From positions 864,001 through 928,000 of the forward strand of contig OY970065.1 in NCBI GenBank assembly GCA_963705295.1: DNA of 64,000 nt, in the 5' to 3' direction. Below are positions 1 through 62,174 of the stretch, piece by piece (position 1 is the first letter of the stretch; each line of letters starts with the position of its first letter). The notes beneath the pieces were generated by a model that saw nothing but the letters and a program-made list of their open reading frames with translations, had not been told where the DNA came from and searched no databases. The position numbers were made by a program, and so were the translations under genes. Source of the stretch: Parachlamydiales bacterium. Lineage in GTDB: Bacteria > Chlamydiota > Chlamydiia > Chlamydiales > Rhabdochlamydiaceae.

Positions 1-78
1 GGAATCCTTCGTATTCAAGAATGTTATTCCTCGCGAGAATCAATCTGGCTTTGCCTCGCTAAGCCCTTTTGTAACCTA
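1..78 (-). repeat. Partial long-hairpin palindromic element (type B inner module with a different outer arm), cut off by the window edge
   Basis: The reverse complement of 1-59 is near-identical to 32885-32942. The outer arm TAGGTTACAAAAGGGCTTA begins at the TAG stop of the upstream ATPase gene. Confidence 0.85.
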
Positions 79-1401
79 TTTGACCATTGGGTTAATAAGT
101 CTCGGGATCTGTTCAATCATATAAAATGGAACATTTAAGATTTGATCCTGATAAGAAAGAGGACTCTGACAAATCCGAATTCCGAACGGCGATTTTTTTT
201 CTTTGATAAATTGTTTTAAAGAACGGAGACGTCCCGTTTTACCCGCTTTGACCTCAATAGGAATAATCTGAGTTCCATCAGTGATTACATAATCAACTTC
301 TGCCTGACTTCCTCGCTTTTCATTTTCCCAGAAGAAAAGCTCTTTTTGCTCATAAAATTCTCCATAGGCGATCAGTTCTTGTCCTACGAATTGTTCAGCC
401 ATCATTCCTGCATTGATTTGTGTTAAATCTTCAGTCCATATTTTTTCGGGATCAATCTGATTCACTTGCTGAATCAGACCCAAATCTAAAAACAAAAGCT
501 TAAATTTCTGTTCATTTTGGTGAAACTTTAGAGGAATCCCTGAGGCAGAAGTAGCATGGACTCGATGTAAAATTCCCGCTTGCTCTAACAAATGGACAGC
601 TTTTTTTAATTCTCTAGAACTTGTTTCCGAATCGATCTTTGAATATTTGAAATGTTGTCCGATGAGATTGGGGATTTTTTCGAAAAGCAATTGTAAGTAT
701 TTATGTTCACTCTTTTTTGCATATTTGCCAAAGTCATTTTGATAAGTTTGTAGGATGATGGCTTGCATCTCCCTGCTTCTTAAAAACGATTCGGTTTTCA
801 AAAACACAGCAATAGCAGCGGGCATTCCTCCTATTAAGAAATACTGTTTTACAAATGTAATCAGATGATCATGAATGGTGGAGTTGATAGTCTGATCCAG
901 ACTGCTATTTTCTATCAGATTGGATAATCGAGAGTTTTTCGCGATTAGGAATTCTTTGAAAGAAAGCGGTCTCACATAGATAAACTGTACCCTTCCAACA
1001 GGAAATGAAAAATCGGCATCTTCTAGTGTAAACTCCAAAAGGGATCCTGCACCGATCACATGGAGCAAGGGCATTTTTTCTTTGAAATAACGGAGAGCCA
1101 TGATGGCCCTTGGACAATTTTGAATTTCATCCAAAAATAGAAGTGTTTTTTCTGGAATAATGTTTTTGTTTGAGAGAAGCTCGATCTTTTGAATAATGGC
1201 TATAGGATCGAGGGTCTCAAAACAGGCGCAATATTCTGGATTTGCATCAAAGTTGACAATAACCAGAGATTCGAAATTTTCATTTCCAAATAGCTCAACA
1301 AGATAACTTTTCCCCACTTGCCTAGCACCACGCAGTAGAAGGGGCATCCGAAAAGGGTCGTCTTTCCAAGCCTTAAGTTTGTCCAATAAAAGTCTAAACA
1401 T
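76..1401 (-). CDS. AAA+ ATPase, AAA_14/DUF4143 family
   Basis: Walker A GARQVGKS, Walker B LFLDEIQ, GGMP motif and C-terminal EVDYV..IPIEVKAG nuclease-like motif. Confidence 0.9.
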   Translation of the reverse strand: MFRLLLDKLKAWKDDPFRMPLLLRGARQVGKSYLVELFGNENFESLVIVNFDANPEYCACFETLDPIAIIQKIELLSNKNIIPEKTLLFLDEIQNCPRAIMALRYFKEKMPLLHVIGAGSLLEFTLEDADFSFPVGRVQFIYVRPLSFKEFLIAKNSRLSNLIENSSLDQTINSTIHDHLITFVKQYFLIGGMPAAIAVFLKTESFLRSREMQAIILQTYQNDFGKYAKKSEHKYLQLLFEKIPNLIGQHFKYSKIDSETSSRELKKAVHLLEQAGILHRVHATSASGIPLKFHQNEQKFKLLFLDLGLIQQVNQIDPEKIWTEDLTQINAGMMAEQFVGQELIAYGEFYEQKELFFWENEKRGSQAEVDYVITDGTQIIPIEVKAGKTGRLRSLKQFIKEKKSPFGIRICQSPLSYQDQILNVPFYMIEQIPRLINPMVK

Positions 1402-1549
1402 ACTTTTATTGTATAAAATTCAGACATATTTTGCAAATTTCAGAACTCCTTGTTTATTAAAGCTTTACATTACTAATATACAATTATAAACAATAAATGT
1501 CTAAAAAACAGGGTTATTTTTATCAGATTTTGTCGAAAAAACAGACTTA

Positions 1550-1730
1550 TTAACCCTCCACACAAAAAAGAGACAACCTGCTGGCTGCACCCCTGACAGA
1601 TCGATCCTCCTCCTCGGCCTAGCCTATCGCCCTAACCTATCGATGGGATCCTCGTCGGTCGGACCGCTGACGCTTCGATCTGACAGGGGTTCGCTTACGC
1701 ATCTTGTCTCTTTTTTGCGTGTCGGGTTAA
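1550..1730 (-). repeat. Long-hairpin MITE-like element type A, copy 1
   Basis: TTAACCC...GGGTTAA ends, imperfect inverted arms, near-identical to 5215-5383 and (inverted) 46058-46238. Confidence 0.95.
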
Positions 1731-1769
1731 TGGTATTTTTATGATCGGTGTGTTAAAATGATGAGCATT

Positions 1770-4036
<2,267 letters not shown>

Positions 4037-4090
4037 CTAAGGGAAATTTACAAATAAGTCGAGAATCTCAATATCCAAATATTGAATTGG

Positions 4091-5188
4091 TTAGAAATAA
4101 ACCCTGGGGATGCGGTCATTGAGTTGGCAGAGGATTTCGTAGGGGATGGTATCACTCCAGGAGGCGACTTCTTGGAGGGTGATTTCTTGGGAGCCTTGTT
4201 TTCCGATGAGGACGACTTCGTCGTCGACGTAGACTTCAGCAGAGCCGACATCGACCATAAACTGGTCCATACAGACGGTTCCGCGAATGGGGAATTTCTG
4301 TCCGCGGATCAGAACAAAACCTTTATTGGAGAGGGAGCGGCGGTAGCCGTCACCGTAACCGACGGGAATGGTTACGATCCGGGTTTGGTGGGGGGTGATA
4401 TACGAATGACCGTAACTAATTCCTTCTCCTTCATCGACAACTTTGAAGTAAGAAATTTTTGCTTTCAGAGAAAAACACGGTGTTATTTCCTGCCAGGGAG
4501 AGGACGGTTTGGAGAGATAACCGAGGGTGACGAGGGATGGCCTGACCATGTCGAAATACGATGTCGGATAATGGAGTGTCCCACCCGAATTTGCGAGGTG
4601 TTTTAAGAGGGGTGCATCGAGCTGGGAGACGAACTGCTCGAAGGCTTCGATCTGTTGCAGAGCAAAAGGATGATCGGGGGTATCGGCTGTAGCCAAGTGA
4701 GAATAGATGCCGACGATTTCCAACCCTTCGAGCCCTCTCAAATAGGGAAAAATAGCCAGGGCTGTCGAGCACCGCATGCCGGTCCGGCGCATCCCCGTAT
4801 CAACTTCAAGGTGGACACGGCAGGTTCGTCCCATCTGTTTGCATTTTTTTGCCACGAGTTCAGCCTTGAATTTGGAGCTGATCGTGAATTCAAGTTGGAA
4901 TTGGATTAAGTCTTCGATCTGATCTTCATGGATGGCACCGAGGACAAGAATGGGCCGTGTGATGCCGGCTTCTCGTAATTTGATTCCTTCTTTCAAATGA
5001 GCCACAGCCAGATAATCAACCCCCGCCTCCTCGGCAGCCTTCCCCACAGGACATAGTCCATGTCCATAAGCATTGGCCTTGATCGGAAAACAAAACAAAC
5101 TTGTCCCAATATTCTTCCGTATGATCCCGATATTTTTTTTCAATTGTCCAAGATCAACTTCAATCCAGGCAGGATGAGGATAACCCAT
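4091..5188 (-). CDS. alr: Alanine racemase
   Basis: PLP-lysine motif IKANAYGHG, plus VDTGMRRTG, IPVGYGDGY and GTVCMDQ. Confidence 0.97.
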   Translation of the reverse strand: MGYPHPAWIEVDLGQLKKNIGIIRKNIGTSLFCFPIKANAYGHGLCPVGKAAEEAGVDYLAVAHLKEGIKLREAGITRPILVLGAIHEDQIEDLIQFQLEFTISSKFKAELVAKKCKQMGRTCRVHLEVDTGMRRTGMRCSTALAIFPYLRGLEGLEIVGIYSHLATADTPDHPFALQQIEAFEQFVSQLDAPLLKHLANSGGTLHYPTSYFDMVRPSLVTLGYLSKPSSPWQEITPCFSLKAKISYFKVVDEGEGISYGHSYITPHQTRIVTIPVGYGDGYRRSLSNKGFVLIRGQKFPIRGTVCMDQFMVDVGSAEVYVDDEVVLIGKQGSQEITLQEVASWSDTIPYEILCQLNDRIPRVYF

Positions 5189-5214
5189 ATTCCTCAGATT
5201 AAGTCATTGGCTTA

Positions 5215-5383
5215 TTAACCCTCCATGCAAAAAAGAGACAATCTGCTGGCTGCACCCCTGACAGATCGATCCTCCTCCTCGGCCTAGCCTAGCGGCTATG
5301 ATCCTCGTCGGTCGGACCGCTGACGCTTCGATCTCACAGGGGTTCGCTTGCGCATCTTGTCTCTTTTTTGCGTGTCGGGTTAA
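5215..5383 (-). repeat. Long-hairpin MITE-like element type A, copy 2 (shorter apical loop), overlapping the 3' end of the ankyrin gene
   Basis: Same ends and arms as 1550-1730. The apical segment is 12 bp shorter. Confidence 0.95.
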
Positions 5384-7373
5384 TATTTTCAGGTTGTTTT
5401 CTTTTTATCCCTTTTGTAAATGAATTCATAAATTCTTCCCGATTGGCGCTCAAAGATTCGAGTTTTCTATCTTTCATGATTTGTTGCCAAGAATTTTCTT
5501 TTAAAATCAGGCAGGCTGTTTTGAGAAGAAATAGGGAGTATTTTCGATGAAAATCAAGGATAGACTCAGCAGAGAGAGGATGATCGACTAATTTTTTTGA
5601 CATTTCTAAGAGAGTATTTAATTCATCTCGATTGGATAGATAGGGAATTAAATTTTCCAATCTTTCTTGGATATTACACCATTGTCCACAGAGTTCATTC
5701 CCAGAATTTCGAATACGAGAGCACAAAAAGCGGAGGGTGAATGTAATCCCTAGGACCCTGAGATCGGCTCCTGTGAGTATACCTAGTTCATAGAGTTCCG
5801 GAGGTTCAACGCCGATGAGGTTTACAAAGCTTTCTAACGGAGAAACGGGATTTCCATCATTAGTTTGCCCAACTCCAATTCCAAGCGTGGCTAAAAGACC
5901 AAAGACATCCGACTCATCGAATTCGGCTTCTGGATCCTCAGGTGTCAGGGAAGTTTGCTTGGAAATGCATGTATGAAGGAGTTGATCGTAAGATTCTATT
6001 AAAGAAGCCATCCTGTTGCAAAAAGTTGCTAAAAAAGGTTGTTGAAAGAGTTTCGGATAGAGTTTTCTTATATCTGAAAGGCAGTCGAGGATAGATTTCA
6101 GTTTTTCTTTGAGTTTTTCTAGCTCTTCGATGGAGTTTGCCTGCGATACTTTTTCACTCAGGATCTCTTTGAAACGTCCAATAGATCTCAATAAACTATC
6201 GGAAGAAAGGATGGGGTAAATTCCCATCGTATGGATTGAAAATTCTTCAGAATACGGGGACGCAGCATAAGCATCGTGCATCCATTCTTGCTCAGAAACC
6301 GTTCTTAGGGCGAGATCGATATTTTCTTCGGTCACTTCTTTTGAGAGGCATTCCATAACTTTCGCGAGTCGATCTTTTTGCCATTTTAGAAATAGTTCGA
6401 CTAAGTCTTGTCTGCGTAAACTATCATGAAAGGGGGTAGTTTTTTTCCCTTTTAGAATGGGAACATTATTATCTAAAAGATAACGGAGGGTGCTTAAGTT
6501 GTTACAGCGAAGTGCTTCATCAATGCCATTACGGCCATTGATATAAGTCTGGTCCAAACTAGCACCTTTCATTCTAAACTTCTCGAGTGTTTCAGCATCG
6601 AGTAGCTCGCACGCGAGAAGAAAAGGGGTCGACCCTAAATTATCTTTTACATCGTGCTGGGCTCCTCGATCTAAAAGAGCAATAACAACTTCTTTCTTAC
6701 GCATACAACAAGCCGTATGTAAAGGTGTGGTTCGCCCTTTGTCTGCTGTATTAATTTTCGCACCCGCTTGAATCAGGAAAAGAGCCGCTTCTGCACTGCA
6801 GTGACATGCTACATGAAGAGGGGTCTTTCCTGTATGTTCCGGGAAATCTAATAGAGAAGGATTTTTAGAAAGTAAAAATTCAAGTCCTTGCACATTCCCC
6901 CATGCGCAGATATGCATCGGCGTTTCACGCACCTGTATTTTAGTATAGTCGATCTCTGCACACGCTTCTAATAGAGCGACAATAAATTCTGATTTTTTGC
7001 CAACAATCAGAGACCAATTGATCATATCAGGCAATCCGGGATGTCCTTTTAACCTGATTAAGAGGTGTTGAAGAGTTTTTAGATCACGATCCATGATGTA
7101 TTGAAACAAATTACAATGACTCACTGTGATTGTTGGATCAGCCCCTTTTTCAAGGAGTGCATCGATGAGGGGGAGATTTCCAGTTCTGACAGCTATGTAA
7201 AGAGGATATTCCCCATTTTCTTCTTCTTTATTAACCGATGCGGAAGTCATTAAAGGTAAGAGTTTTTCTAAAGGTAAATTATCTCGGATCGCCTGATGCA
7301 ACGAATCCGCAGAACTCCAAGGTACTGGCAGTGAGATGGGTGCATCCGTAATAAGAGGAGGGGTGGTCGACAT
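5334..7373 (-). CDS. Ankyrin-repeat protein, candidate host-directed effector
   Basis: Repeated GxTPLHxA-type units (GEYPLYIAV, GKTPLHVAC, RTTPLHTAC, GSTPFLLAC) and a helical C-terminal region. Confidence 0.88.
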   Translation of the reverse strand: MSTTPPLITDAPISLPVPWSSADSLHQAIRDNLPLEKLLPLMTSASVNKEEENGEYPLYIAVRTGNLPLIDALLEKGADPTITVSHCNLFQYIMDRDLKTLQHLLIRLKGHPGLPDMINWSLIVGKKSEFIVALLEACAEIDYTKIQVRETPMHICAWGNVQGLEFLLSKNPSLLDFPEHTGKTPLHVACHCSAEAALFLIQAGAKINTADKGRTTPLHTACCMRKKEVVIALLDRGAQHDVKDNLGSTPFLLACELLDAETLEKFRMKGASLDQTYINGRNGIDEALRCNNLSTLRYLLDNNVPILKGKKTTPFHDSLRRQDLVELFLKWQKDRLAKVMECLSKEVTEENIDLALRTVSEQEWMHDAYAASPYSEEFSIHTMGIYPILSSDSLLRSIGRFKEILSEKVSQANSIEELEKLKEKLKSILDCLSDIRKLYPKLFQQPFLATFCNRMASLIESYDQLLHTCISKQTSLTPEDPEAEFDESDVFGLLATLGIGVGQTNDGNPVSPLESFVNLIGVEPPELYELGILTGADLRVLGITFTLRFLCSRIRNSGNELCGQWCNIQERLENLIPYLSNRDELNTLLEMSKKLVDHPLSAESILDFHRKYSLFLLKTACLILKENSWQQIMKDRKLESLSANREEFMNSFTKGIKRKQPENINPTRKKETRCASEPL

Positions 7374-7400
7374 AATCTAATATTATAAACTAATTAGAAT

Positions 7401-9602
7401 TTAAAATGTTGATATTGGATCAATATCGATGAGTAAATGAATGTGCGGGTTTTTCTTTATAGTTCTAAGAATTTCTGTAACAGGGCCGGTTGATTTTCCT
7501 TTGATGAGGAATTGGAACCGGAAGTGGTCTTTAATTTTGGCATAGCCGCAGGGGAGGACGGGCTGAAGTTCGTAGGAAGAGGGGAGCTTGGGGATGAGAA
7601 GGGACCGGATTTCTTGAGCATAGGAGAGGGTGGTTTGGGGTTTTTTGCCGCTGAAGGTGAGTTTGATGAGGTGGCAGAATGGGGGGAAGGAGAAGAGTTT
7701 TCGATTTTCAAGCTCTGCGGTGAAGAAGGCGAGATAATCGAGATGTGCTGCTTGCTCGATGATCGGATGGTGGGGGAGTTTTGTCTGGAGAATCACTTCA
7801 CCTTTGAGGGCACTCCGGCCGGAGCGGCCCGCAACTTGGGTGACGAGTTGAAAGACTTGTTCGGAGGCTCGAAAGTCGGGAATTTGAAGGGTCGCATCGG
7901 TGTTGAGAACGCCGACTAACGTGACGGAGGGAAAGTGGAGTCCTTTGGCGATCATTTGGGTTCCAATGAGGACATCGGCTTTGCCGGCTCGGAATTGTTT
8001 AAACAGTTTTTCGTGGCTTCCTTTATGGCGGGTGGTGTCGGCATCGATGCGCAAGGTTCGGATGTTGGGGAAGATGGCATGGAGAGTTCGTTCCACTTGC
8101 TCTGTGCCGACGCCTTTAAATTTGAATGAGTCGAAGGCTTTGCAGGAGGGGCACTCAGGCGGTGGGGCCCGCTGATGGCCACAAAGATGGCAGGAGAGGG
8201 TATTTTGTCCTTTGTGAAAGGTGAGCGTGATCGAACAATGAGGACAGCTCAACGCTTCGCTACACCCACTACAAACTGCCGAGGTATTGTAGCCGCGTCT
8301 GTTTAGAAATAGGAGAGATTGTTCTCCGACTTCGATCCTTTTTTTGAGAGCTTGCAAAAGTTGCTCCGAAAAAAGAGAAAACCCTTGCGCTTTCGCAAAT
8401 TCTGAACGCATATCGACAATATGAACGGTCGGTAAATGGGCGCTGTCGGCTCGGGTTGTCAGTTCACTGAGGATGTATTTGCCAGAGTGTGCATTGGCGT
8501 AGCTCTCTAAACTCGGTGTTGCGCTTCCCAAAATGACGGCGGCTTTGCAGATTTTTCCGCGCATGACAGCGACATCCCGTGCATGGTAGCAAGGGATTTC
8601 ATCGGTTTGTTTGTAGGCAGAGTCGTGTTCTTCATCGACAATGATGAGGCCGAGGTTCCGTGCGGGGCTAAAAAGGGCAGATCGGGGTCCCACCACAAGG
8701 GAATAATCGCCGCTATAAATCTTGTGCCACGTGTCCCTTCGCTCCCCATCACTGAGGCGGTGATGGAGGATAGCGACTTTTTCTTGGAATCTGCTCCGCA
8801 ATCTTTCGACAGTTTGGGAGGTGAGGGCGATTTCAGGTACAAGGAAGAGAGCGGATCTCCCCATCCTCAGCGCGGTATCGATTGCTTGAAGATAGACTTC
8901 TGTTTTCCCGCTTCCTGTCACACCGTGGAGCAGGTGGGTTTCGAAAAGATGGGCCTCAAGGGTTTGCTGGATTTTTTGAAGGGCTTTTTCTTGCTCATCA
9001 TGGAGGGTTTTATGTTTGGTCGGAAAGAAATCGTGGTCGCCTAAAATCGACCGATCTAGGGTGAGGGGAGAGAGGGTTATGATTCCTTTTTGAGACAATG
9101 TTTCCAAGGGGCTTCGGGAAGTTTCAGCGCGCTCGAGGAGTTCGCTTAAGAGAATTCCCTGCGGAAAGCGGAGCAACACTTCTAAAATCTTGGCTTGAGC
9201 GCCTCGGCTTTGGCTGCACACCTCCGCGAGCTGAGGACGGGACAGTACTGATTTGACAAAGAGTTGCTTTTTTTCCTCCATCCGTTTTCGGACGGGTGGT
9301 GGGAGAAATAGTTTGATGATTTTGAAAAAGGGTGTGCAATAATATTTCGAGAGCCATAGACCCAGCTTCAGCAAATCTTCGGGAATACTCTCCGAATGGA
9401 CTTCCAAGATGGGTAGAGTTTTTTTCGATTCGGTTTGATTTTTGAGCTCCAGAACGGTTGCAGTGCACCGGCGATTTTGAAGAGGAATGGTGACGCGCGT
9501 GCCAGGCTCTACCAGGCGTGCAAATTCTTCTGGGACGGAGTAATCAAGGGGTTTGTCGAGCGCTACGTCGACATAGACGGATGCGAAGCAACCATTTTCC
9601 AT
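7401..9602 (-). CDS. priA: Primosomal protein N' (replication restart helicase)
   Basis: GVTGSGKTEVY, DEEHD, LNRRGY, Cys-pair zinc-binding motifs, GTQMIAKGLHFP and QVAGRSGR. Confidence 0.98.
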   Translation of the reverse strand: MENGCFASVYVDVALDKPLDYSVPEEFARLVEPGTRVTIPLQNRRCTATVLELKNQTESKKTLPILEVHSESIPEDLLKLGLWLSKYYCTPFFKIIKLFLPPPVRKRMEEKKQLFVKSVLSRPQLAEVCSQSRGAQAKILEVLLRFPQGILLSELLERAETSRSPLETLSQKGIITLSPLTLDRSILGDHDFFPTKHKTLHDEQEKALQKIQQTLEAHLFETHLLHGVTGSGKTEVYLQAIDTALRMGRSALFLVPEIALTSQTVERLRSRFQEKVAILHHRLSDGERRDTWHKIYSGDYSLVVGPRSALFSPARNLGLIIVDEEHDSAYKQTDEIPCYHARDVAVMRGKICKAAVILGSATPSLESYANAHSGKYILSELTTRADSAHLPTVHIVDMRSEFAKAQGFSLFSEQLLQALKKRIEVGEQSLLFLNRRGYNTSAVCSGCSEALSCPHCSITLTFHKGQNTLSCHLCGHQRAPPPECPSCKAFDSFKFKGVGTEQVERTLHAIFPNIRTLRIDADTTRHKGSHEKLFKQFRAGKADVLIGTQMIAKGLHFPSVTLVGVLNTDATLQIPDFRASEQVFQLVTQVAGRSGRSALKGEVILQTKLPHHPIIEQAAHLDYLAFFTAELENRKLFSFPPFCHLIKLTFSGKKPQTTLSYAQEIRSLLIPKLPSSYELQPVLPCGYAKIKDHFRFQFLIKGKSTGPVTEILRTIKKNPHIHLLIDIDPISTF

Positions 9603-13459: not shown

Positions 13460-13461
13460 CT

Positions 13462-17305: not shown

Positions 17306-17417
17306 AACCACCGAGCACACCGAGAGCACCGAGAAAATGCAGAGGAAGAGATTCTTTTGCGGCGAAGCCGCCTCGGTGCTCTCGGTGTGCTCGGTGTGCT
17401 CGGTGTGCTCGGTGGTT
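17306..17417. repeat. Inverted array of 9-bp units (ACCGAG-NNC), 3 facing 5, around a GCGGC-GAA-GCCGC mini-hairpin
   Basis: Read directly from the sequence. It lies just downstream of the htrA stop. Confidence 0.9.
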
Positions 17418-22208: not shown

Positions 22209-22290
22209 GGGGGTGTCGCATAGCGGCAATTGCAAGGGACTGTAAATCCCTCGTCTTCGGACTTCGTGTGTTCGAGTCACACCGCCCCCA
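22209..22290 (+). tRNA. tRNA-Tyr(GTA)
   Basis: Acceptor GGGGGTG/CGCCCCC, anticodon loop CT-GTA-AA, long variable arm and GTTCGA T-loop. Confidence 0.96.
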
Positions 22291-22304
22291 AATCCTCTAT
22301 AGAA
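22238..22304 (+). repeat. attL: 67-bp direct repeat (3' part of tRNA-Tyr plus 14 bp)
   Basis: Identical to 30969-31035. Confidence 0.96.
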
Positions 22305-22610
22305 ATTGATTCAAGCATTCACCAAAATCAGCCCTCTCAAAAATCTTAAATGGGGGGCCAGTGGGGTGATCGATCACAACATATCTCAACGCACTCATCC
22401 AGTTTTTGAAGTGTCTGAACATCGTTTAAGATAAAAAAATCCATAAGGTTTATTCTTTAAACACCCAAGATCCACCCATGCAATAAAAGATCTGGCTTAT
22501 ATTTGTTCATTTTCAAGGAGATATATAGAATTTAGCAGGGGATAATATATCCCTCGTTGTGAAAATTTCTCGGATTTTCTATGCTTCTCCATTTTCAAGG
22601 AAGGATAGCA

Positions 22611-30968: not shown

Positions 30969-31035
30969 GACTGTAAATCCCTCGTCTTCGGACTTCGTGT
31001 GTTCGAGTCACACCGCCCCCAAATCCTCTATAGAA
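30969..31035 (+). repeat. attR: 67-bp duplicate of the tRNA-Tyr 3' end
   Basis: Identical to 22238-22304. The tRNA 5' half is absent. Confidence 0.96.
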
Positions 31036-31043
31036 TTAGAGTG

Positions 31044-31068
31044 AAAAAGGGCCCATTTCTAGGCCCTT
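31044..31068 (-). terminator. Intrinsic terminator after hicB
   Basis: Minus strand reads AAGGGCCTAGAAATGGGCCCTTTTT. Confidence 0.65.
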
Positions 31069-32717: not shown

Positions 32718-32849
32718 ACTATGTTTTCTTTTGGTAAATATCTAGTACACAGCGACCTCCATTAGAGAAAATTTTAGCATACTGTCCTGTATTTTTTTCC
32801 AATAAAACTGGCGTAAAAGAGCAACGGCTAGTAGAATTTCACATAATTA

Positions 32850-33006
32850 TTAACCCGAGGGGTCAAAAGGTGACAAGATGCGCTGCGAGGCAAAGCCAGA
32901 TTGATTCTCGCGAGGAATACATTCTTGAATACGAAGGATACCGAGCGAGAATCGATATGGCGAAGCCGCAGCAAGCAGGTTGTCACCTTTTGACCCCTCG
33001 GGTTAA
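32850..33006 (+). repeat. Long-hairpin MITE-like element type B
   Basis: Perfect 31-bp inverted repeat 32846-32876/32980-33010 with TTAACCC...GGGTTAA ends. The inner module is shared with 1-59. Confidence 0.95.
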
Positions 33007-33026
33007 TAATCTAAAGGAGATTCGAA

Positions 33027-46029: not shown

Positions 46030-46057
46030 GGAAAAAATCTAGCATATCCAATAACTA

Positions 46058-46238
46058 TTAACCCGACAAGCAAAAAAGAGACAAGATGCGTAAGCGAACC
46101 CCTGTCAGATCGAAGCGTCAGCGGTCCGACCGACGAGGACCCCATCGATAGGTTAGGGCGATAGGCTAGGCCGAGGAGGAGGATCGATCTGTCAGGGGTG
46201 CAGCCAGCAGGTTGTCTCTTTTTTGCGTGGAGGGTTAA
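46058..46238 (+). repeat. Long-hairpin MITE-like element type A, copy 3
   Basis: Reverse complement of 1550-1730 with only a few substitutions. Confidence 0.95.
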
Positions 46239-46263
46239 TACATTCGAATGTAAAATAGTTTCT

Positions 46264-53083: not shown

Positions 53084-53157
53084 TTAGATTCCCTCCAAAT
53101 CTTTTTTCTAATAAAAATGCACGAGAAAGTAAAGAACAATTGTACTATTATTCGCCT

Positions 53158-53817: not shown

Positions 53818-54323
53818 TGAATCTATATCAATTCATGACATCCATGATTTGGGCTTCTATAGTCTTTTTGGTCATTGGGGTTGCCCTCTATTTGATTTTG
53901 AGCGGAAGACTCAAATGGGTTGAGTACCAAACAATCCTTGGGAAAATTGGACTCAATATCAGTACAAATCTGGGCATCAAAGATCTAACACCGGATGAAA
54001 TTCTTGCTTTTGAGAGTTTTGTCTATCGGGATTTAGCTGCAATTGAAAGGGGAGCCAGGCTCGCCTACATTATTTTATTTATCGAAAAAGGGCTACTTGG
54101 TGCACAATTCGTCGATAACGTTCTGAAAATAGAATTGACAGACAAAGGAAAACTGCTGCATACGACTCTCATCGCAGAATGTGAAAAAAAGTTGTTGATC
54201 AGTCCCAAAACCGAAATACAGTGGGCAGCGGGTGAGAAAAAAATCGTAGCCAAAGCAGAAAATTTGAAAAAACAAGATTTGGAAGAAGCGTTAAAGAAAT
54301 TACAAAAGGAAGCGAAAACATGA
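53814..54323 (+). CDS. Hypothetical protein with N-terminal TM helix
   Basis: ATGA-coupled to nfi and to the next gene. Confidence 0.7.
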
Positions 54324-54865
54324 AAAAACTCGTCTGCGTCGTGATCTTAGGTTTTACAAGCTATATTTGGGGCGACAACACCCTCGGTGTTGAACAATTG
54401 AAAAAAGGAATCGAGCAAGCAAGTGATGCGCAAGACTATCTTGATTCTTACAATTGGAAACACCTCTTGGAAAAGAAACCGTATTCGAACGCCATTACGA
54501 TCACAGAGATCAAATTTAATGGGCATCCGTGTGGTGTGGTTGTGAAGCCGGGTGAGAAAATCGAGGGGAAGCTCCGTTTTGAACTCGATCGTAAGGAGTG
54601 CAGGGATATGAGGTATCACCGGATTATTCTTGGATTCAAAGATCTCGGTGCACAAACATCCATTGGTGCAGGGCTTGGTTTTTTTGCTCATAAGGATGGC
54701 AAGGAAAAATTTGAACTTACAGCTCCAAAAGAACCGGGTCTTTATCAAGTCCGATTCCGTCATGTTCAAGCGTTTTCCGAAGATGATGCTTTAGCAAAAT
54801 GGGTGGACTCGAAGAAAAGACAACCGTATTCCCGAACGACGTTGGGATTTGTCTTAGTTCGATGA
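54320..54865 (+). CDS. Hypothetical exported protein
   Basis: Signal peptide and Ig-like LTAPKEPGLYQVRF. Confidence 0.7.
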   Translation: MKKLVCVVILGFTSYIWGDNTLGVEQLKKGIEQASDAQDYLDSYNWKHLLEKKPYSNAITITEIKFNGHPCGVVVKPGEKIEGKLRFELDRKECRDMRYHRIILGFKDLGAQTSIGAGLGFFAHKDGKEKFELTAPKEPGLYQVRFRHVQAFSEDDALAKWVDSKKRQPYSRTTLGFVLVR

Positions 54866-55656
54866 AAAATGGAATCGAAACCTTTGAATTGACACATTAT
54901 TATAACACAAATCCAGCTGTGGATCGGTTGTCATTCCAAGTGCATGCAGGTTCCGTTTTCGGATTACTAGGGCCCAATGGAGCGGGGAAGAGCACCCTCA
55001 TCAAAATGTTAACCACGCTCCTTCCGCCCACCTCGGGAACAGCCTCTATCATGGGTTATGATCTGATCCGCGAGCCTGCTTCGATCCGGAAAAAAATTGG
55101 ATATGTTCCACAATTGATTTCCGCTGATGGTGATCTGACGGGATATGAAAATCTCCTTCTATCAGCAAAGTTGTATGGATTGAAGAGATCGTATCGAAAA
55201 AAAAGGATCCATGAAGTTCTCGATTTCATGGAACTCGCCCCTTTTTCCAATAAACTCGTGAGTCAGTATTCTGGGGGAATGATCCGCCGTTTAGAAATTG
55301 CACAAGCCGTACTCCATAATCCTGACGTCCTTTTTCTCGATGAACCGAGCGTTGGGCTCGACCCAGCTGCAAGGAAAGCTCTTTGGCATCGGATCCAAGA
55401 ATGGAGAAAACACTTTCGCACCACTCTTTTGATTACGACGCATGACATGGACGAGGCCGACTATCTATGCGATACCGTCGCTTTCATGTATCAGGGTAAA
55501 ATTGTCGCGCTCGACAAACCGGCCAAACTTAAAAGCGCCATAGGAGCGAAAGCGACACTCGATGATGTGTTCATTCACTTTACAGGTAGCTCAATAACAC
55601 AAGGAGAAGATTACCATAATGTCAGACAAGTTCGGCGCACGATCTCTCATCAATAA
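54862..55656 (+). CDS. ABC-2 type exporter ATP-binding subunit (DrrA-like)
   Basis: GPNGAGKST, YSGGMIRRLEIA, LDEP and TTHDMDEA. Confidence 0.93.
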   Translation: MKNGIETFELTHYYNTNPAVDRLSFQVHAGSVFGLLGPNGAGKSTLIKMLTTLLPPTSGTASIMGYDLIREPASIRKKIGYVPQLISADGDLTGYENLLLSAKLYGLKRSYRKKRIHEVLDFMELAPFSNKLVSQYSGGMIRRLEIAQAVLHNPDVLFLDEPSVGLDPAARKALWHRIQEWRKHFRTTLLITTHDMDEADYLCDTVAFMYQGKIVALDKPAKLKSAIGAKATLDDVFIHFTGSSITQGEDYHNVRQVRRTISHQ

Positions 55657-56422
55657 ATTACACTTAAGACAGATGTGGGCCATCATCGAAGCCGACCTGC
55701 GGAAGCTCATGCACGATCCTTCCGAACTCTTAACACGGATGATCCAGCCGATCATTTGGATTATGATTTTCGGACAAGCCATGACCCATGCCCAAATCAT
55801 GCCGACCGGCTCGATTCCTTATTTGGATTACATGATCCCGGGAGTTGCAGCTCAAAGTATTTTGTTTGTTTCGATCTTTTATGGAATTGCTCTGATTTGG
55901 GAAAAAGATTTAGGAACCCTGCACAAGATTTTAGTCACACCCGCACCTCGTGTCGTTCTCGTGATAGGGAGGGCTTGTGCTGCCGCCATCCGTGGCCTCT
56001 CTCAACTCTGGATTATCTATCTTTTATCTTTTTTTCTAGGAGTTCATTTGAGATGGGATCTTCTTTCCCTTCTCGGCGTGGGTGCCATTTCAGTCCTTAC
56101 AGCAGCCATTTTCTCAACATTTTCTCTCATCGTTGCTACAATTGTGAAAAAAAGAGAGAGATTCATGGGGATAGGACAAGCTCTCACCATGCCTCTTTTT
56201 TTCGCTAGCAACGCCCTCTATCCGATCGAGTTGATGCCGAAGTGGATCAAAATTCTCTCCCTTCTCAATCCCCTCACATATCAGGTCGATGCTCTGAGAA
56301 CCCTCATGATCCAAAATCAACCCTCCCATTTTGGCCTAGGACTCGACTTTTCCATCGGCATCGCCGTGTTCATTCTTCTCACTCTGATTGCTACAAAACT
56401 GTATCCCAAAATCTTGTATTAA
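55619..56422 (+). CDS. ABC-2 type exporter permease
   Basis: YMIPG, PLFFASNALYPI..MP.W and NPLTYQVDALR. Confidence 0.92.
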   Translation: MSDKFGARSLINKLHLRQMWAIIEADLRKLMHDPSELLTRMIQPIIWIMIFGQAMTHAQIMPTGSIPYLDYMIPGVAAQSILFVSIFYGIALIWEKDLGTLHKILVTPAPRVVLVIGRACAAAIRGLSQLWIIYLLSFFLGVHLRWDLLSLLGVGAISVLTAAIFSTFSLIVATIVKKRERFMGIGQALTMPLFFASNALYPIELMPKWIKILSLLNPLTYQVDALRTLMIQNQPSHFGLGLDFSIGIAVFILLTLIATKLYPKILY

Positions 56423-57582
56423 ATTGCTTCGACGTTGATTTGGAAGCCATTTCCCACGTCGCGGAGGGTGAAGGCGCGGCGGTAGGCAAAATTTGCGTGC
56501 TCGCGGAGGTATTTCATGGAGGCTTCTCGATCGAGGGAGTAGTCTGCGAGGTAAAGAGGGCGCAAAGCAGGCATGTATGTTGATGCAATCGAGGCTATTT
56601 TCTGCAAAAGGGCTGTCATTTTGGATTGATCGAGGGGCGTGGGAGTTTTTTTGATCTCTGCTTCGATGGCTTTTTGGATGAGGGGGAAGACTTCTTGTTT
56701 GGTGATCAGTTCTCCCGTCGGCATCCGGATCAACGCATTGTCCGAAATATGGGAAAGCTCATGGTTGCAAAATTCTTCAAGGTGAGTGAAGTGTTTCATA
56801 AAAGTCCCATCCGAACGGATTTTATATCCCCAATCGAAGATGAAACGAGCCTCTTTATTAGTAGGGGAACCAAAAATTGCCACAGGTAAAGATCCTTCTT
56901 GGGTTGTTTGTTCTCTCAAAATAGTATCTAAACCAGGAGGAATCAAAGCGACAGCATTCGCATGCTCAGGTGTTAAGATAAGGTTGCCGCACAGAAGATT
57001 TTCTTCGGGGATATCTAAGCCGTTTTTTCTCAAAGTATTGACAACTTTCGCAATAGGTGGAAGATTTTCTAAGACAGCTACGCAAGCTTGCCGAGGGAAA
57101 TATTTGCCGATATTTTGCATTCTCGATAGATAGACAATTCTATCTGGAGAGAGAGTCCGGCCAGAGAATTTTTGGGAGTAGATCCGTTCCATGAGACTTC
57201 TGAAATTGCTGAGTATCGGCTGAATTTCTTCCGGCTTTTCCAATTTATAGGCGATGTCGACCAAAAAAAATGAAATTTCGCTGAACCCTTGTTCAATGAG
57301 AGCTCGTCCGACGACGTATTCGACCAGTAGTTTCCCAGAGCCGAGAGAGAGTAGAACTACAGGTTTATCCCGTGGACACTGATGGACCATATTTTCAACC
57401 ATCTGTTGGATGAATTGTTTCCGGCTTTCCCATTCTCCAGCAGGGGAATCGACCATACAATATAAATGGGTATCTCTTAGATGAAGGACTCTGAGAGTTT
57501 TTTTAAACGTATCATCGCGAGAGCAACGTTCCTGAAGGGGTAATTTCCCGACCCATGTTAAATCTAAAGTTGGTATGCACAT
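56419..57582 (-). CDS. Hypothetical protein
   Basis: 387-aa ORF with a Rossmann-like LLSLGSGKL...LVD segment. Confidence 0.75.
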   Translation of the reverse strand: MCIPTLDLTWVGKLPLQERCSRDDTFKKTLRVLHLRDTHLYCMVDSPAGEWESRKQFIQQMVENMVHQCPRDKPVVLLSLGSGKLLVEYVVGRALIEQGFSEISFFLVDIAYKLEKPEEIQPILSNFRSLMERIYSQKFSGRTLSPDRIVYLSRMQNIGKYFPRQACVAVLENLPPIAKVVNTLRKNGLDIPEENLLCGNLILTPEHANAVALIPPGLDTILREQTTQEGSLPVAIFGSPTNKEARFIFDWGYKIRSDGTFMKHFTHLEEFCNHELSHISDNALIRMPTGELITKQEVFPLIQKAIEAEIKKTPTPLDQSKMTALLQKIASIASTYMPALRPLYLADYSLDREASMKYLREHANFAYRRAFTLRDVGNGFQINVEAI

Positions 57583-57660
57583 ATAAGAATGATTATAAAC
57601 AATTTATAATAAAAATAAAACCTTGTTGTTTAAATAAAAATGTATATAATAATAATTATT

Positions 57661-58098
57661 ATGATTTATACAAAGTATAATACAGCAGGGCAGCCAGAAA
57701 AGCTACTCCCTCTATTTCAAAGGGTTAAGATCCGTCTTAATTCCTTATTAGAGGCTATAACTCAGGTATTTAGAAATGCTTTCAAAGGGGTTGAAAAGGA
57801 ACCGGTTAGAAAGGTTAGTATATCTAAGGTCGAAAAAAGAAAGGAAGAGATGCAGGAAACTATTTTAGATTTATTGACGGCAAAGCCCCAATATCCTAAG
57901 TATCAATGGGCTGAAGAGCTGAAAGAAAGATTAGATATTATTCTCAAATCCTTAGAGGCTTACAATAAAGATATGAATCCCGAGGAACGGGTTAGTGAAG
58001 TGGTATTGCTCAGCTTGCGCAAGCTTCCATGGCGTGATATCACACATGAAGAGGTTTGCAAGAACGCCGATTTTCTTCTGAATTCTTATCGTAGATAA
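57661..58098 (+). CDS. Hypothetical protein
   Basis: AT-rich helical ORF. Confidence 0.6.
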   Translation: MIYTKYNTAGQPEKLLPLFQRVKIRLNSLLEAITQVFRNAFKGVEKEPVRKVSISKVEKRKEEMQETILDLLTAKPQYPKYQWAEELKERLDIILKSLEAYNKDMNPEERVSEVVLLSLRKLPWRDITHEEVCKNADFLLNSYRR

Positions 58099-58606
58099 GT
58101 TTTTTTCTGTAGATGCGCAAGAAAGGGGTCAAATGGTGGAGTTTGGCTGTCTTTCTACTTTGAATATGAAAGACTTTCCATTTCTGAGTAGTAAGGGCAT
58201 CTGCAACCAAACTCCGATGACATCGCCAAGGGACTGCCTCGCTGCATAGAAGAGCTGCCGTTTTTTTCAGAGCTATTTTTTCAGCTTTTGAGAGCCCCTT
58301 TTTAAAAGAGTCTGTTTCCATGTAATCGGCATATCCTCGAAACGAAGCATTCCTCCAACTTGTATTGACGGAATCTTTTCTCGCATGTCTGAGGCCACCC
58401 AATTCTTTCAGGTGCCTGTAACCGATTTTGGCTTTGGATAAAGACCGCTTGAGAGCGGCTTGATCAAATTGAGGACAGTAGCGTGAGCGAGGGATAGTTC
58501 GGATGTCTAAGACAATTTCTATTCCATGAGCTTTTAAGAGATCAATAAAGGTCTTAATGGGTCTTGTCGAATGGCCAATTGTGAAGATCTGTTTTTTTAT
58601 TGACAT
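58040..58606 (-). CDS. DUF488 family protein
   Basis: FTIGHSTR, DIRTIPRSR, LGGLR and LCSEAVPWRCHR. Confidence 0.92.
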   Translation of the reverse strand: MSIKKQIFTIGHSTRPIKTFIDLLKAHGIEIVLDIRTIPRSRYCPQFDQAALKRSLSKAKIGYRHLKELGGLRHARKDSVNTSWRNASFRGYADYMETDSFKKGLSKAEKIALKKTAALLCSEAVPWRCHRSLVADALTTQKWKVFHIQSRKTAKLHHLTPFLRIYRKKLIYDKNSEENRRSCKPLHV

Positions 58607-58640
58607 CTCTTACTTCGTCCTATCACAATGATGCTCATAA

Positions 58641-59417
58641 ATGCTATTGCAGGATATAGAGATTTCTTTAGACGATCCTCAAAAGACCCTGGCAAAATAT
58701 ACAGAAATCTTGGCTCTTACAGAAATCAGGGCTGGAGCTTTCGCTCGGTATTTACCTTTTTCTTTTTTGAATCAAATCTTTCTTCTTTCGAGATGCGCGG
58801 TGACGATTCCACCCCCCATGGTCAATCGAGCCCCCTTTTTGATCTCTTCCATTGCAGCTCTCATGAAGGGGCTTTCGCAAGGTGGAAAAAAATTGTCACC
58901 GATGGTGGCCCTTTGCATGCAGGGCCTTCTTTTTAACATCGGTTTTCTTCTCTTTGGAAAAAGAGCTTTGGGACTCCTCATGGGCTGTGTTTTAGCGTCC
59001 GTCTGGGGGAGTGTTCAAATCGGTATCGTGATGACCCTTTTCTTCGGTGGGCCGTTTTATAAAATTTTGATGGCTTATTCTTTGTTTAAAATGGTTGCAA
59101 GTATCGCCGTTTCTTTCTTATCCATGAAAATCTCTGAGGAACGATTCCGCCGTTATACTGATATTTTCCGCCAAAAAAAAATGGACCGAGGAACCAAACC
59201 TTTAAAGATCGTTTTGAATGCCGTGATCGAAACAGCTTTCGTTTTCTCACTAGGGTATTTCCTTTTTTCTTTCGAGTTAATAAAACCGATCGTCTTTTAT
59301 TTTGCGTGGGCCATTCTGAACCAACTCGTGCCGACACAGCGGTGGGTCAAATTCCTTGCGAAAAAATTTCCCTCTGTACAACAAACCTATCAAGATATTA
59401 AAGCATGGAAGAAGTGA
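58641..59417 (+). CDS. Hypothetical membrane protein
   Basis: Hydrophobic 258-aa ORF upstream of the SOD gene. Confidence 0.65.
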   Translation: MLLQDIEISLDDPQKTLAKYTEILALTEIRAGAFARYLPFSFLNQIFLLSRCAVTIPPPMVNRAPFLISSIAALMKGLSQGGKKLSPMVALCMQGLLFNIGFLLFGKRALGLLMGCVLASVWGSVQIGIVMTLFFGGPFYKILMAYSLFKMVASIAVSFLSMKISEERFRRYTDIFRQKKMDRGTKPLKIVLNAVIETAFVFSLGYFLFSFELIKPIVFYFAWAILNQLVPTQRWVKFLAKKFPSVQQTYQDIKAWKK

Positions 59418-60046
59418 TGAGAAAATTAATTTTTCTGCTTGCAGTAACGTATGTAGGAATGGTGGCTGGTTATCAAGCCAAAAACTATTCCCATCTTGTG
59501 GGAATGCCCGGTTTCAGTCAAAAGGCCTTAGAAGCTCATTTCAAACTCTATCAAGGGTATGTGACCAATACGAACCTCCTTTTGACCACTTTGGAAAAGC
59601 TCGCTGCCGATGGGAAAAATAAAACTCCTGAATATGCTGAGCTAAAGCGCCGTTTTGGATGGGAGTTCGATGGGATGAGGCTGCACGAGTATTATTTTGA
59701 TAATTTAGGCGGAAAAGATTCTGCTTTGGATTCTAAGCATGCTCTTTATGTCCAGATCGAGAAAGATTTTGGGAGCTATGAAAAATGGAAAGCCGATTTC
59801 GTTGCAACAGGATCGATGCGAGGGATAGGTTGGGCCGTACTCTATCAAGATCCTGCAACGGGACGTCTCATCAACACATGGATCAATGAACACGATGTCG
59901 GACATTTAGCCGGTGGAAAACCGATCCTCATCATGGATGTTTTCGAACACGCCTATATGATCGATTATCTTTTGGATCGAGCTTCGTATATCGATGCTTT
60001 TTTCAAAAATCTCAACTGGGACATCATTCAACACCGGTATCAATGA
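59417..60046 (+). CDS. Fe/Mn superoxide dismutase with signal-peptide-like N-terminus
   Basis: LEAH, LHEYYFDNL, GIGWA and DVFEHAY metal ligands. Confidence 0.92.
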   Translation: MRKLIFLLAVTYVGMVAGYQAKNYSHLVGMPGFSQKALEAHFKLYQGYVTNTNLLLTTLEKLAADGKNKTPEYAELKRRFGWEFDGMRLHEYYFDNLGGKDSALDSKHALYVQIEKDFGSYEKWKADFVATGSMRGIGWAVLYQDPATGRLINTWINEHDVGHLAGGKPILIMDVFEHAYMIDYLLDRASYIDAFFKNLNWDIIQHRYQ

Positions 60047-60999
60047 AATTATACCGAAACAACTTGAAGAATCGGGAATTTGACAAGGAGGCTCCTCAGA
60101 ATTTTTGTTTGGAGCGAGCGACCATTGCCGAGAGGCAAGGCGCGAGTGAAAACAAAAATTCTGAGGTAAAGCCGACGCCGTCAAAACCCGATTCTTCAGG
60201 TTGTTTTGGTATACCTCTTTTAGGCCTAGGAACTTCGGATCTTCGTGGACGAGAATGTACCGAAATCGTCGCTGAGGCCCTTGAACTCGGTTACCGTCAC
60301 ATCGATACTGCCCATGATTATGAAAATCATAAGGCCATTCAAAAGGGAATGAAAGATTTTGATCGAGAGAAAATTTTTCTAACGACCAAACTCGAATTGA
60401 ATCAGGTCGATCTGCGTGACATTTCCGGCTCAGTTGAAAAAGCTTGCGATCTAGCATTGAAGGAACTTGGAACCGATTATCTCGACCTCTACCTCATCCA
60501 TTGGCCTGATCATAATTTTTCAATGTCAAACATTTTCAAAGCAGTGAAAAAGTTAATCCAGAAAAGAAAAATCAAGAAAGCCGGTGTCAGTAATTTCACA
60601 ATCCACCACTTGAAAGACCTTTTGGAAGAGGATGGCAAACCAATTGCCAACCAAGTCGAATTTCATCCGTATCTCTATCAAAAAGAGCTTCTAAAGTTTT
60701 GCATTGCACACCGCATCCAGCTCATCGCGTATAGACCGTTTGGAAAAGGTGCTCTGTTGAAAGATCCCGTCTTCAAAAAGATCGGCAAAAACTACAATAA
60801 AACCGCAGGGCAAGTGATCTTACGGTGGCTCATTCAGAAAAATATTCCGACAATTCCCAAAGCTTCCTCTTATGAACATCTCAAAGAAAACATCGAAATT
60901 TTTGACTTTGCTCTCACAGCCAAAGAAATGAAAGAAATCGACCAGCTCAATAAGAACAAACGTTTTTGCGGAGCCGAAAATCCAGAATTTAACTATTAA
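60043..60999 (+). CDS. Aldo/keto reductase carrying an in-frame 54-aa palindromic-element insert
   Basis: PLLGLGT, GYRHIDTA..Y, TTK, YLIHWP, GVSNF, NQVEFHP and IPKAS. Confidence 0.93.
   Translation: MKLYRNNLKNREFDKEAPQNFCLERATIAERQGASENKNSEVKPTPSKPDSSGCFGIPLLGLGTSDLRGRECTEIVAEALELGYRHIDTAHDYENHKAIQKGMKDFDREKIFLTTKLELNQVDLRDISGSVEKACDLALKELGTDYLDLYLIHWPDHNFSMSNIFKAVKKLIQKRKIKKAGVSNFTIHHLKDLLEEDGKPIANQVEFHPYLYQKELLKFCIAHRIQLIAYRPFGKGALLKDPVFKKIGKNYNKTAGQVILRWLIQKNIPTIPKASSYEHLKENIEIFDFALTAKEMKEIDQLNKNKRFCGAENPEFNY
60050..60213 (+). repeat. Long-hairpin palindromic element type C (RPE-like), inserted at TA
   Basis: TATACCGAAACAACTTGAAGAATCGGG ... CCCGATTCTTCAGGTTGTTTTGGTATA, with inner CCTCAGAATTTTTGTTT/AAACAAAAATTCTGAGG. 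Confidence 0.93.
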
Positions 61000-61010
61000 G
61001 AGAGGTATTA

Positions 61011-62006
61011 ATGGAATTTACTCAAATACAGCCACTCAAACAAAAAATTTCAAGAATTGGTCTCGGAACATGGGCCATTGGGGGATGGATGTGGGGTGGT
61101 ACCGACGAAAAAAATGCCATTGCAACCATTCATAAAGCCCTCGACCAGGGGATCAATTTGATCGATACAGCTCCCGTTTACGGATTTGGGGTTTCCGAGG
61201 AAATTGTTGGAAAAGCTTTGAAACAGTACGGGAAGCGAGATCGCGTTGTGATTTCGACCAAAGTCGGTCTAGTATGGACTGATCCTCAACATGTCTTTCG
61301 TGATTCGAGAAAGCAGATCCTCCAAAAACAGCTCGAAGATTCTTTAAAAAGACTCCAAACCGACTATATCGATATTTATTTTGTTCACTGGCCCGATCCT
61401 CAAACACCCTTTGATGAAACAGCAGAAAATCTCCTCCAATTACAAAAACAAGGCAAGATCCGTGCGATTGGAGTCAGTAATTTTTCTGTCGATCAAATGG
61501 AAGCTTTTCGAAAAGGGGGACCCCTCCATGTTCTCCAATCACCGTTTAATCTCTTTGAAGATGCCATCGAGAAAAATGAACTCGCCTACGCTCTCAAAAA
61601 CAAAATTGCCGTTCTGGGCTATGGTTCGCTCTGCCGTGGTATGCTATCGGGTAAAATGAGCAAAGAAAGACACTTCAAAGGGGACGACCTCCGCAAAGAC
61701 GATCCCAAATTCCAAGAGCCTCATTTTTCAGAATATCTCACTTGTATTGCAAGGCTGCAAGACTGGGTGAAGAAAAAATACAACAAACCTCTCATCGCTT
61801 TAGCCATCCGGTGGTCGCTCGACAAAGGGATCGATGTCGCCCTTTGGGGAGGCCGCAAGCCCGAACAAATGGAGGGAATCGATCCGATCTGGGGCTGGAA
61901 ATTAACCCGTCAAGATTTCGAAGAAATCGACCGAATCAAGCGAGAAACCCTCCTCACCCCGCTTCCGCAGAAGATGATGGCCCCCCCCGATCGTGAAGCT
62001 ATGTAG
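61011..62006 (+). CDS. Aldo/keto reductase (YhdN-like)
   Basis: IGLGTWAIGG, IDTAPVYGFG.SEE, TK, HWPD and GVSNF. Confidence 0.94.
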   Translation: MEFTQIQPLKQKISRIGLGTWAIGGWMWGGTDEKNAIATIHKALDQGINLIDTAPVYGFGVSEEIVGKALKQYGKRDRVVISTKVGLVWTDPQHVFRDSRKQILQKQLEDSLKRLQTDYIDIYFVHWPDPQTPFDETAENLLQLQKQGKIRAIGVSNFSVDQMEAFRKGGPLHVLQSPFNLFEDAIEKNELAYALKNKIAVLGYGSLCRGMLSGKMSKERHFKGDDLRKDDPKFQEPHFSEYLTCIARLQDWVKKKYNKPLIALAIRWSLDKGIDVALWGGRKPEQMEGIDPIWGWKLTRQDFEEIDRIKRETLLTPLPQKMMAPPDREAM

Positions 62007-62174
62007 TCGGTCCTGATTTAGTCGCTTTATCGGAGATTTACAATGGGTTTCGATGAGATTTTGCTTCCCACTTCGAGGACAATATGTGAGATCTGCATAT
62101 GGCCGAGAAATGGGAAGCAAAAGATCGCGAAACCCATGTAAAGATCCGATGAATGGATTAAATCAGGGCCGACT
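62005..62174 (+). repeat. Long-hairpin palindromic element type D between convergent genes
   Basis: AGTCGGTCCTGATTTA ... TAAATCAGGGCCGACT, with nested arms ATGGGTTTCG/CGAAACCCAT and TTTTGCTTCCCA/TGGGAAGCAAAA. Confidence 0.9.

Follow-up and report, generated by a model that had tools for sequence, protein, structure and literature searches.

Gene-less hairpin MITEs with IS630 and IS5 ends and a G.A-rich, one-strand interior in a member of the Rhabdochlamydiaceae

Known IS630-related bacterial MITEs include RUP, with IS630-Spn1, and the Correia elements; in the accessible part of a 2007 review, mobilisation of bacterial MITEs is called unproven (PMC2229807). ERIC is listed as MITEEc1, IS630, in the relevant entry of a further source (PMC11602168). 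A model for the cutting of such ends and their insertion at TA is provided by ISY100, an IS630/Tc1/mariner element studied in vitro, which needs duplex repeats only and duplicates TA; the accessible part of that report ascribes no role to a folded interior (PMC2170065). Rickettsia, also intracellular, carries palindromic elements, which are described in excerpts of two sources as in-frame hairpins of about 150 bp (PMC2229807, PMC10969869).

This analysis examines seven hairpin elements in a window of 64,000 nucleotides (contig OY970065.1, positions 864,001 to 928,000) from a Parachlamydiales bacterium of the Rhabdochlamydiaceae. Like RUP and Correia elements, they are shorter than 200 bp (160-185 bp), devoid of a transposase and predicted to fold into a long stem-loop, and types A, B and C are TA-flanked with ends that match full-length IS630. 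The difference is that of the three end types here, two lead to separate IS630 elements and the third to an IS5 element, and yet the interiors are related.

All seven hairpins with facing CGAG motifs reported in the initial annotation are present where it placed them, and re-checking of the coordinates found those of the motifs exact (Table 1). The type B copy at 1-78 is indeed there, but it is not partial: the complete element (C1:863934-864097) ends at window position 97. The description of each copy as a single long nested hairpin holds as far as long rods are predicted in all six complete copies, but the type A core is often branched in RNAfold. Similarly, the four sequence types are not fully separate, types A and B having one terminal repeat in common. 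Rfam scans returned tRNAs only for the window, and nothing near the gathering threshold for the other element types.

Table 1. Positions of the hairpin elements and of one host gene in the window.
Feature	Position	Strand	Facing motifs	Remarks
Type B MITE, right two-thirds	1..97	-		element begins 66 bases left of the window; the AAA_14/DUF4143 gene 76-1401 takes its stop codon from it
Type A MITE	1548..1732	-		IS630-type ends; G.A strand is the minus strand
Type A MITE, short apical variant	5213..5385	-		the 3' end of ankyrin gene 5334-7373 extends into its end
Type B MITE	32848..33008	+	CGAGG/CCGAG, 32911/32941	IS630-type ends; one tandem G.A, at the facing motifs
Type A MITE	46056..46240	+	CGAGG/CCGAG, 46134/46171	stacked tandem G.A, 46131-46138 / 46171-46180
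Type C MITE	60050..60213	+	CGAGC/GCGAG, 60115/60142	TA-flanked; ERIC-like mid-arm motif; 162-bp in-frame insertion
Aldo-keto reductase gene	60043..60999	+		host of the type C MITE, inserted after codon 3
Type D MITE	62005..62174	+	CGAGG/CCGAG, 62074/62103	IS5-family ends; 3-4 bp direct repeat flanks, no TA duplication; between convergent stop codons

The terminal repeats identify the insertion sequences to which these elements correspond, all of which sit in other genomes, of related chlamydiae. The terminal 28 bases of the type A copy at 46056 agree at 25 positions with L260, a complete IS630 element (NF033545, 209 bits) whose terminal repeats match both A and B. The type C end agrees at 22 of 23 positions with the IS630 element in L026 (NF033545, 200 bits); both proteins lie above the cut-off of this model. 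The type D ends agree at 18 of 21 positions with L311, a broken IS5 relative, and L295 encodes a 461-aa IS5 transposase between D-like repeats (NF033578, 458 bits; cut-off 275). Two further families of the genome, E and F, have ends like those of IS630 elements in L032 and L017. Types A, B and C thus combine the features of IS630-family MITEs, namely matching IS ends, insertion at TA, absence of a transposase and many dispersed copies. Type D does not belong there, since its ends match IS5 and it has direct repeats of 3-4 bp with no TA duplication; its terminal repeats match a full-length IS5 element, as in IS5-family MITEs. By their sequence, the four types are gene-less MITEs with IS630 (A, B, C) and IS5 (D) ends. 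The initial annotation had proposed that a folded strand is recognised instead of duplex terminal repeats, and had named beforehand, as evidence to the contrary, that the types map to the ends of unrelated IS families. This is what the ends show, with two different IS630 elements and an IS5 element as their counterparts, and the proposal is not sustained.

Target sites differ with the end type. Excising 162 bp of type C, which adds 54 codons to the aldo-keto reductase, restores the gene start seen in all 11 orthologues fetched, none of which has the insert. Ends of type A/B are flanked by TA in 122 of 132 cases (a search for an A/B empty site found none), and both type D copies have 3-4 bp direct repeats, the two partner IS5 copies having flanks that are not direct repeats and lying near contig ends. 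Overall, target duplication tracks the end type and not the core: C and F have TA, D has 3-4 bp, and elements with GAGAC ends have 3 bp. The latter are presumably IS5-like; a search for their transposase found none.

As the initial annotation expected, no mobilising enzyme is encoded within the window. Neither an IS630 nor an IS4/IS5 transposase was found in this genome, the assembly of which is 94.7% complete. The suggested HUH or reverse-transcriptase partner fared no better: the genome holds one broken Y1 fragment and one broken reverse transcriptase, neither near an element. A 1.1-kb stretch between B-type ends (C1:1949518-1950646), considered as a transposase carrier, encodes an acyltransferase. 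Among 66 metagenome loci with A/B ends, 48 are closed elements and 17 are open ends, with IS630 similarity in none; in viral contigs the end patterns matched 0, 0 and 9 times, by chance and within genes of phages.

Several other hairpin systems do not fit. REPIN and IS200-IS605 elements have no target duplication, and their HUH transposase lies beside the same hairpins; here target duplications are present and the sole Y1 is a broken fragment away from the elements. The attC sites of integrons have AAC/GTT consensus ends, which C and D lack, and the copies are not arrayed. A kink-turn has by consensus a 3-nt bulge 5' of the tandem G.A; such a bulge can be drawn in type A only, and B, C and D pair straight through. 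With Rickettsia palindromic elements the window elements share the hairpin form, a length of about 150 bp and, as verified for type C, in-frame insertion in protein genes; here most copies are intergenic, and the type C peptide, in one frame, matches none of the NCBIfam palindromic-element models.

The interiors do not follow the ends. The terminal repeats of A/B, C, D and G are mutually unrelated, and the MITE interiors are not derived from the IS adjoining their ends. Compared directly, the cores of the four window types show little similarity (z -0.2 to 3.2), so that kinship rests on intermediates, the cores being connected through G, H and D relatives (z 4-11). Of the claim that all types form one system, the relatedness of the cores stands, through these intermediates. 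Cores are found only inside terminal repeats. Within one copy, the two ends have 87.5% identity in the variable spacer of their terminal repeat, compared with 56.6% when shuffled (73 distinct pairs); the two ends of the IS630 element L260 differ in this spacer. MITEs are also inserted inside B-type arms and cores (L150, L169, L176). One MITE in L169 has an unrelated repeat as its core.

A further common property is the distribution of purines between strands. Among 51 representatives, transversion-type arm mismatches are purine-purine on one strand in 581 versus 84 cases (87%; 61% if neutral), a share of 89% when the core is excluded, and the chosen strand is the same in core and arms in 45 of 48. 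Twenty unrelated palindromes of the genome, as a control, reach 66%. Tandem GA/GA exceeds AG/AG by 58 to 12, with 8.9 expected. Because the representatives share ancestry, these strand statistics rest on about seven lineages. The G.A strand is lower in energy in 6/6 complete window copies under both RNA and DNA parameters, the difference being greater with RNA, and the type D fold has a z of -12 against 200 shuffles. In the C family, 41 of 55 pairs covary, a level reached in 0/500 shuffles, in support of the initial annotation. The accessible parts of two reports describe G..A loops closed by C-G, and CGAG blocks, as stable in DNA (PMC13037366, PMC10085684); 13 of 16 A-type apical loops are of this G..A kind, a hint in favour of DNA.

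The predicted one-strand, G.A-rich fold is thus common to the types, but the GA tandem itself is frequent and not universal. By an energy-free count it occurs in 34/51 representatives; it is absent from 17, including the abundant GAGAC-ended families and type I (A/B ends), and is not required for spread. Nor does the bare CGAG motif prove kinship, because a 6-base matrix of the CGAG core, used on its own, fails to tell elements from shuffles. Within the genome the pair is well kept, in 26/26 scored A copies and 36/39 scored B copies, the remaining three B copies having AA on one side.

The reading we prefer, with a probability of roughly 60%, is that these MITEs are moved in trans by cut-and-paste transposases and that the G.A interior aids their spread. 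Movement in trans is suggested by the match of the ends to full-length IS630 and IS5. By analogy with ISY100, the transposase would bind the duplex terminal repeat; the interior would act in a transient single-stranded state, slightly more probably as DNA than as RNA. Fold-back pairing would allow one arm to template the other and so keep both ends matched. A core might gain new ends when another element inserts in one arm and is then copied onto the other. The fold could raise copy number by protecting a transferred single strand, or by bringing together ends 160 bp apart. Arm matching could also arise without selection, by template switching at any palindrome. As to a footprint of single-stranded DNA, none was found: copies show no leading/lagging strand bias (34 vs 49 of 83, p = 0.12), and C>T changes are equally frequent on both strands (20 vs 20 for the G.A strand and its complement). 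RNA would suit as well, given that GNRA loops make up 6 of the 13 G..A loops in the C family and that in D, D relatives and ERIC the purine strand is also the one favoured by G.T wobbles.

More tentatively, and with the balance of probability against it, the G.A rod may be a transposase-independent, single-strand fold-back chassis common to numerous bacterial MITEs, those of chlamydiae and E. coli ERIC among them, that captures the ends of any available IS family (IS630, IS5 and others) through copying from arm to arm and boosts mobilisation in trans. ERIC/IRU resembles type C in its TATAC-type ends and in the same facing mid-arm motif, and ERIC has a tandem G.A core and, in 6/6 representatives, purine loops on one strand. 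A mid-arm matrix built from chlamydial C elements only gives these six 8-26 bits; five exceed all 60 pairing-preserving shuffles and the remaining one has p = 0.049, as against p < 0.05 in 4/34 other non-C elements. However, ERIC measures 127 bp against the 164 bp of type C, and its core is unrelated (z <= 0.5 for A-D). The C-family covariance model gives ERIC 19.2 bits (E 0.055), a score that an unrelated palindrome equals, and has no match in the whole E. coli chromosome. Length (160-185 bp) and core sequence do not allow the window elements to be classed as ERIC/IRU proper.

The strongest rival, although unlikely, is that these are ordinary MITEs whose one-strand fold is a feature of RNA, retained to the benefit of host or element: a stable rod in transcripts that cross the element, with G.A loops that influence mRNA stability or cutting by RNases. 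Such effects are reported for ERIC and Correia elements, and those of ERIC on RNA depend on orientation according to the accessible part of the review (PMC2229807). The larger strand difference with RNA parameters would suit it, as would the genomic setting. The genome holds 89 element copies or fragments, 76 of them A/B, and 68 of 300 genomes from the order contain C-type matches. Most copies in this genome are intergenic, six besides the type C window copy being read through by predicted genes. A stop codon lies at an element end in 34/82 copies, and convergent gaps are enriched among element sites (22/76 vs 92/886, p = 2e-5). The purine strand is favoured by G.T wobbles in D (4:1), in relatives of D (25:3) and in ERIC (24:6), but not in most A/B-ended representatives; as a strand marker over all 51, wobbles give 26 with the purine strand, 20 against and 5 ties. 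Against an RNA role, GNRA tetraloops number 0/16 in type A, and sense orientation is not favoured. The three window copies described as having the G.A strand as the sense strand do so, but the bias disappears genome-wide, with 28 sense and 20 antisense among 48 scorable copies on our own gene calls (p = 0.31), and directly after stop codons (18:19).

It is less probable still that the fold has no function, the purine loops being inherited from a few palindromes captured between IS ends, with imperfect arms avoiding palindrome instability and template switching producing the covariation. Cores without GA are abundant, an unrelated repeat serves as the core in the L169 MITE, the arms are fully matched in the copy at C1:686812, and independent lineages are few. 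However, avoiding perfect palindromes requires neither purines on one strand nor an excess of GA/GA. In addition, in 21 C-type elements from many families, compared by eye, stems vary and loops are kept (GA/GA in 15, G-to-A only in 4 more). Least probable, and very unlikely, is a single enzyme (HUH nuclease or reverse transcriptase) recognising the folded G.A core, with the ends incidental: related cores between unrelated ends, a strand-specific design and recent copies (23/66 with a neighbour at >=98%) in a genome where no IS630 or IS5 transposase was found would suit it, but for each end type there is a complete DDE insertion sequence with matching ends, target duplication goes with these ends, cores lie only inside terminal repeats, and both candidate enzymes are broken and away from the elements.

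The usual view of MITEs is that of insertion sequences that have shrunk and whose interior is of no consequence. In these elements the interior does not derive from an IS, is predicted to fold on one strand, and recurs with the ends of two transposase families. If the loops are neutral, this would be merely one further MITE family. The common mid-arm motif links the outcome to ERIC, and with L260, L026 and L295 each offering an intact transposase gene that pairs with a MITE, both movement in trans and the role of the G.A rod are testable in E. coli.

In the 2.13-Mb genome, a single contig (C1), a BLAST catalogue contains 89 copies or fragments of the hairpin elements: 46 of type B, 30 of A, 5 of E, two each of D and H, and one each of C, F, G and I. 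The seven elements in the window (C1:864001-928000) and their facing CGAG motifs lie where the initial annotation placed them; the copy at the window start, called partial there (1-78), is actually a whole element ending at 97. The CGAG pair is well conserved, with the tandem retained in 26/26 scored A and 36/39 scored B copies. Copies are enriched in convergent intergenic gaps. The sense-strand bias proposed for the G.A strand is absent genome-wide (28 versus 20 of 48 copies, p = 0.31, with gene orientation from our own gene caller), and leading and lagging strands are likewise used without bias (34 versus 49 of 83, p = 0.12).

Features in the genome (C1) and in the window
Feature	Position	Remark
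Type E copy	C1:1094674	read through in frame by predicted gene
Type B copies	C1:1098991, 1283334, 1454552	read through in frame by predicted genes
Type G copy	C1:1253552	read through in frame by predicted gene
Type F copy	C1:1731620	read through in frame by predicted gene
Type A copy	C1:1794475	within 3' part of malic-enzyme-like gene
Y1 transposase	C1:631488-631646	broken
Reverse transcriptase	C1:814460-815079	broken
IS110-like transposase	C1:1792665-1793696	split
Three lone B-type ends (L049)	C1:1948252-1950646	around thioesterase, phosphopantetheinyl transferase and acyltransferase genes
Palindrome array	C1:1984144-1984973	short-unit type
Palindrome	window 17306-17417	unrelated; short tandem units
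tRNA	window 22209-22290
77-bp direct repeat	window 22238-22314, 30969-31045	3' part of the tRNA; 8.7 kb apart

The element interior appears to be built for folding on one strand. Mismatches were counted in 51 representatives, from about seven lineages, of 186 elements (own genome, relatives, metagenome contigs and 13 Escherichia coli ERIC copies). When the two arms are compared, transversion-type mismatches fall 581 to 84 into one class (87%; neutral, 61%), or 332 to 40 without the core, and the strand preferred by the core is also that of the arms in 45/48; 20 unrelated genome palindromes give 66%. Tandem GA/GA occurs 58 times and AG/AG 12 times (8.9 expected after shuffling), with at least one GA/GA in 34/51 representatives. 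In the type C family (21 elements), 41/55 pairs covary by changes on both sides while loops remain purine; kin can, however, outdo every shuffle without any structure.

The terminal repeats themselves are insertion sequence ends. Of 41 relatives, 13 supplied IS630 loci; among these, the ends of L026 resemble type C (22/23), those of L032 type E and those of L017 type F. A protein search over 300 genomes matched in 8 and yielded a complete IS630 element, L260; its repeats agree with the A/B ends at 25/28. A D-end pattern, matched in 21/251 genomes, led to two elements of 1.5 kb that carry an IS5 transposase (intact in L295, broken in L311), and type D ends match at 18/21 (L311). No IS630 or IS5 transposase matching the ends was found in the own genome. 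The proposal that a folded strand is recognised instead of duplex terminal repeats is not supported, since the ends match IS630/IS5 repeats; for ISY100, duplex ends suffice, according to the accessible text of PMC2170065.

Target duplication type tracks end type. TA adjoins 122/132 A/B ends, and an F-type element within a B copy (L176) duplicates TA; direct repeats of 3-4 bp flank both D copies, and GAGAC-ended relatives have 3-bp repeats. All 11 fetched orthologues of the aldo-keto reductase gene begin where it would without the 162 bp of type C. Where TA deviates at A/B ends (genome and metagenome loci), 14 cases differ at the outer base, one at the inner and one at both; the cause could lie in copying from arm to arm or in a different boundary of the element. 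GAGAC-ended MITEs with 3-bp duplications are abundant in G310, G101, G240 and other genomes, with as many as 53 end matches in one genome; a search found no partner transposase.

Types A/B, C, D and G have mutually unrelated terminal repeats. Direct core pairs among A-D show weak similarity, and the E, I and ERIC cores no relation, but the G core is linked with those of A, B and C (z 4-8), the H core with C and A (z 4-7) and a D-relative core with D and A (z 5-11); related cores are thus carried by both IS630 and IS5 ends. The variable end spacer is matched between the two ends of one copy (87.5% versus 56.6%), which is not so in the IS itself. Three MITEs are inserted into B-type arms or cores, with duplications of 5-6 bp (L150), 3 bp (L169, its core an unrelated short repeat) and TA (L176). 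A new end would be inserted in one arm and copied onto the other by fold-back, which would account for spacer matching and end swapping.

ERIC, between aceF and lpd and in 12 further copies, has one-strand purine loops like the chlamydial elements. A matrix from the C mid-arm alone finds the ERIC mid-arm in 6/6 representatives, and a whole-element C model stays below significance on ERIC. Type C is not an ERIC; the two probably work alike, and their arms probably share ancestry.

Whether the folded form is DNA or RNA is finely balanced, with DNA slightly the likelier. RNA is favoured by G.T wobbles on the purine strand's side in D, its relatives and ERIC, and by GNRA in 6/13 G..A loops of C. 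DNA is favoured by the missing sense bias and by A-type apical loops, which are G..A on a C-G pair in 13/16 (one of the 16 probably a false match) and never GNRA; in the accessible text, GNA/GNNA loops have a higher stability as DNA than as RNA (PMC13037366), and sheared pairs arise in CGAG blocks of DNA (PMC10085684). Neither replication-strand nor deamination bias is seen in element copies.

One lone B-type end of L049 lies inside the transferase frame; the locus may be a composite element by which polyketide accessory genes were carried. The 77-bp tRNA repeats resemble att sites of an integrated island, and short-unit palindromes recur genome-wide.

Hairpin MITEs with TA ends are already known, as are their link to IS630 and the occurrence of copies in frame, as far as the accessible text goes (PMC2229807, PMC10969869, PMC3184786, PMC11602168). 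Literature searches, covering mainly openly accessible journals, gave no paper about MITEs of chlamydiae, nor any about a tandem G.A core common to MITEs of different IS families. The elements are real and their mobilisers would be ordinary; the shared interior, which probably aids their spread, is the unusual part.
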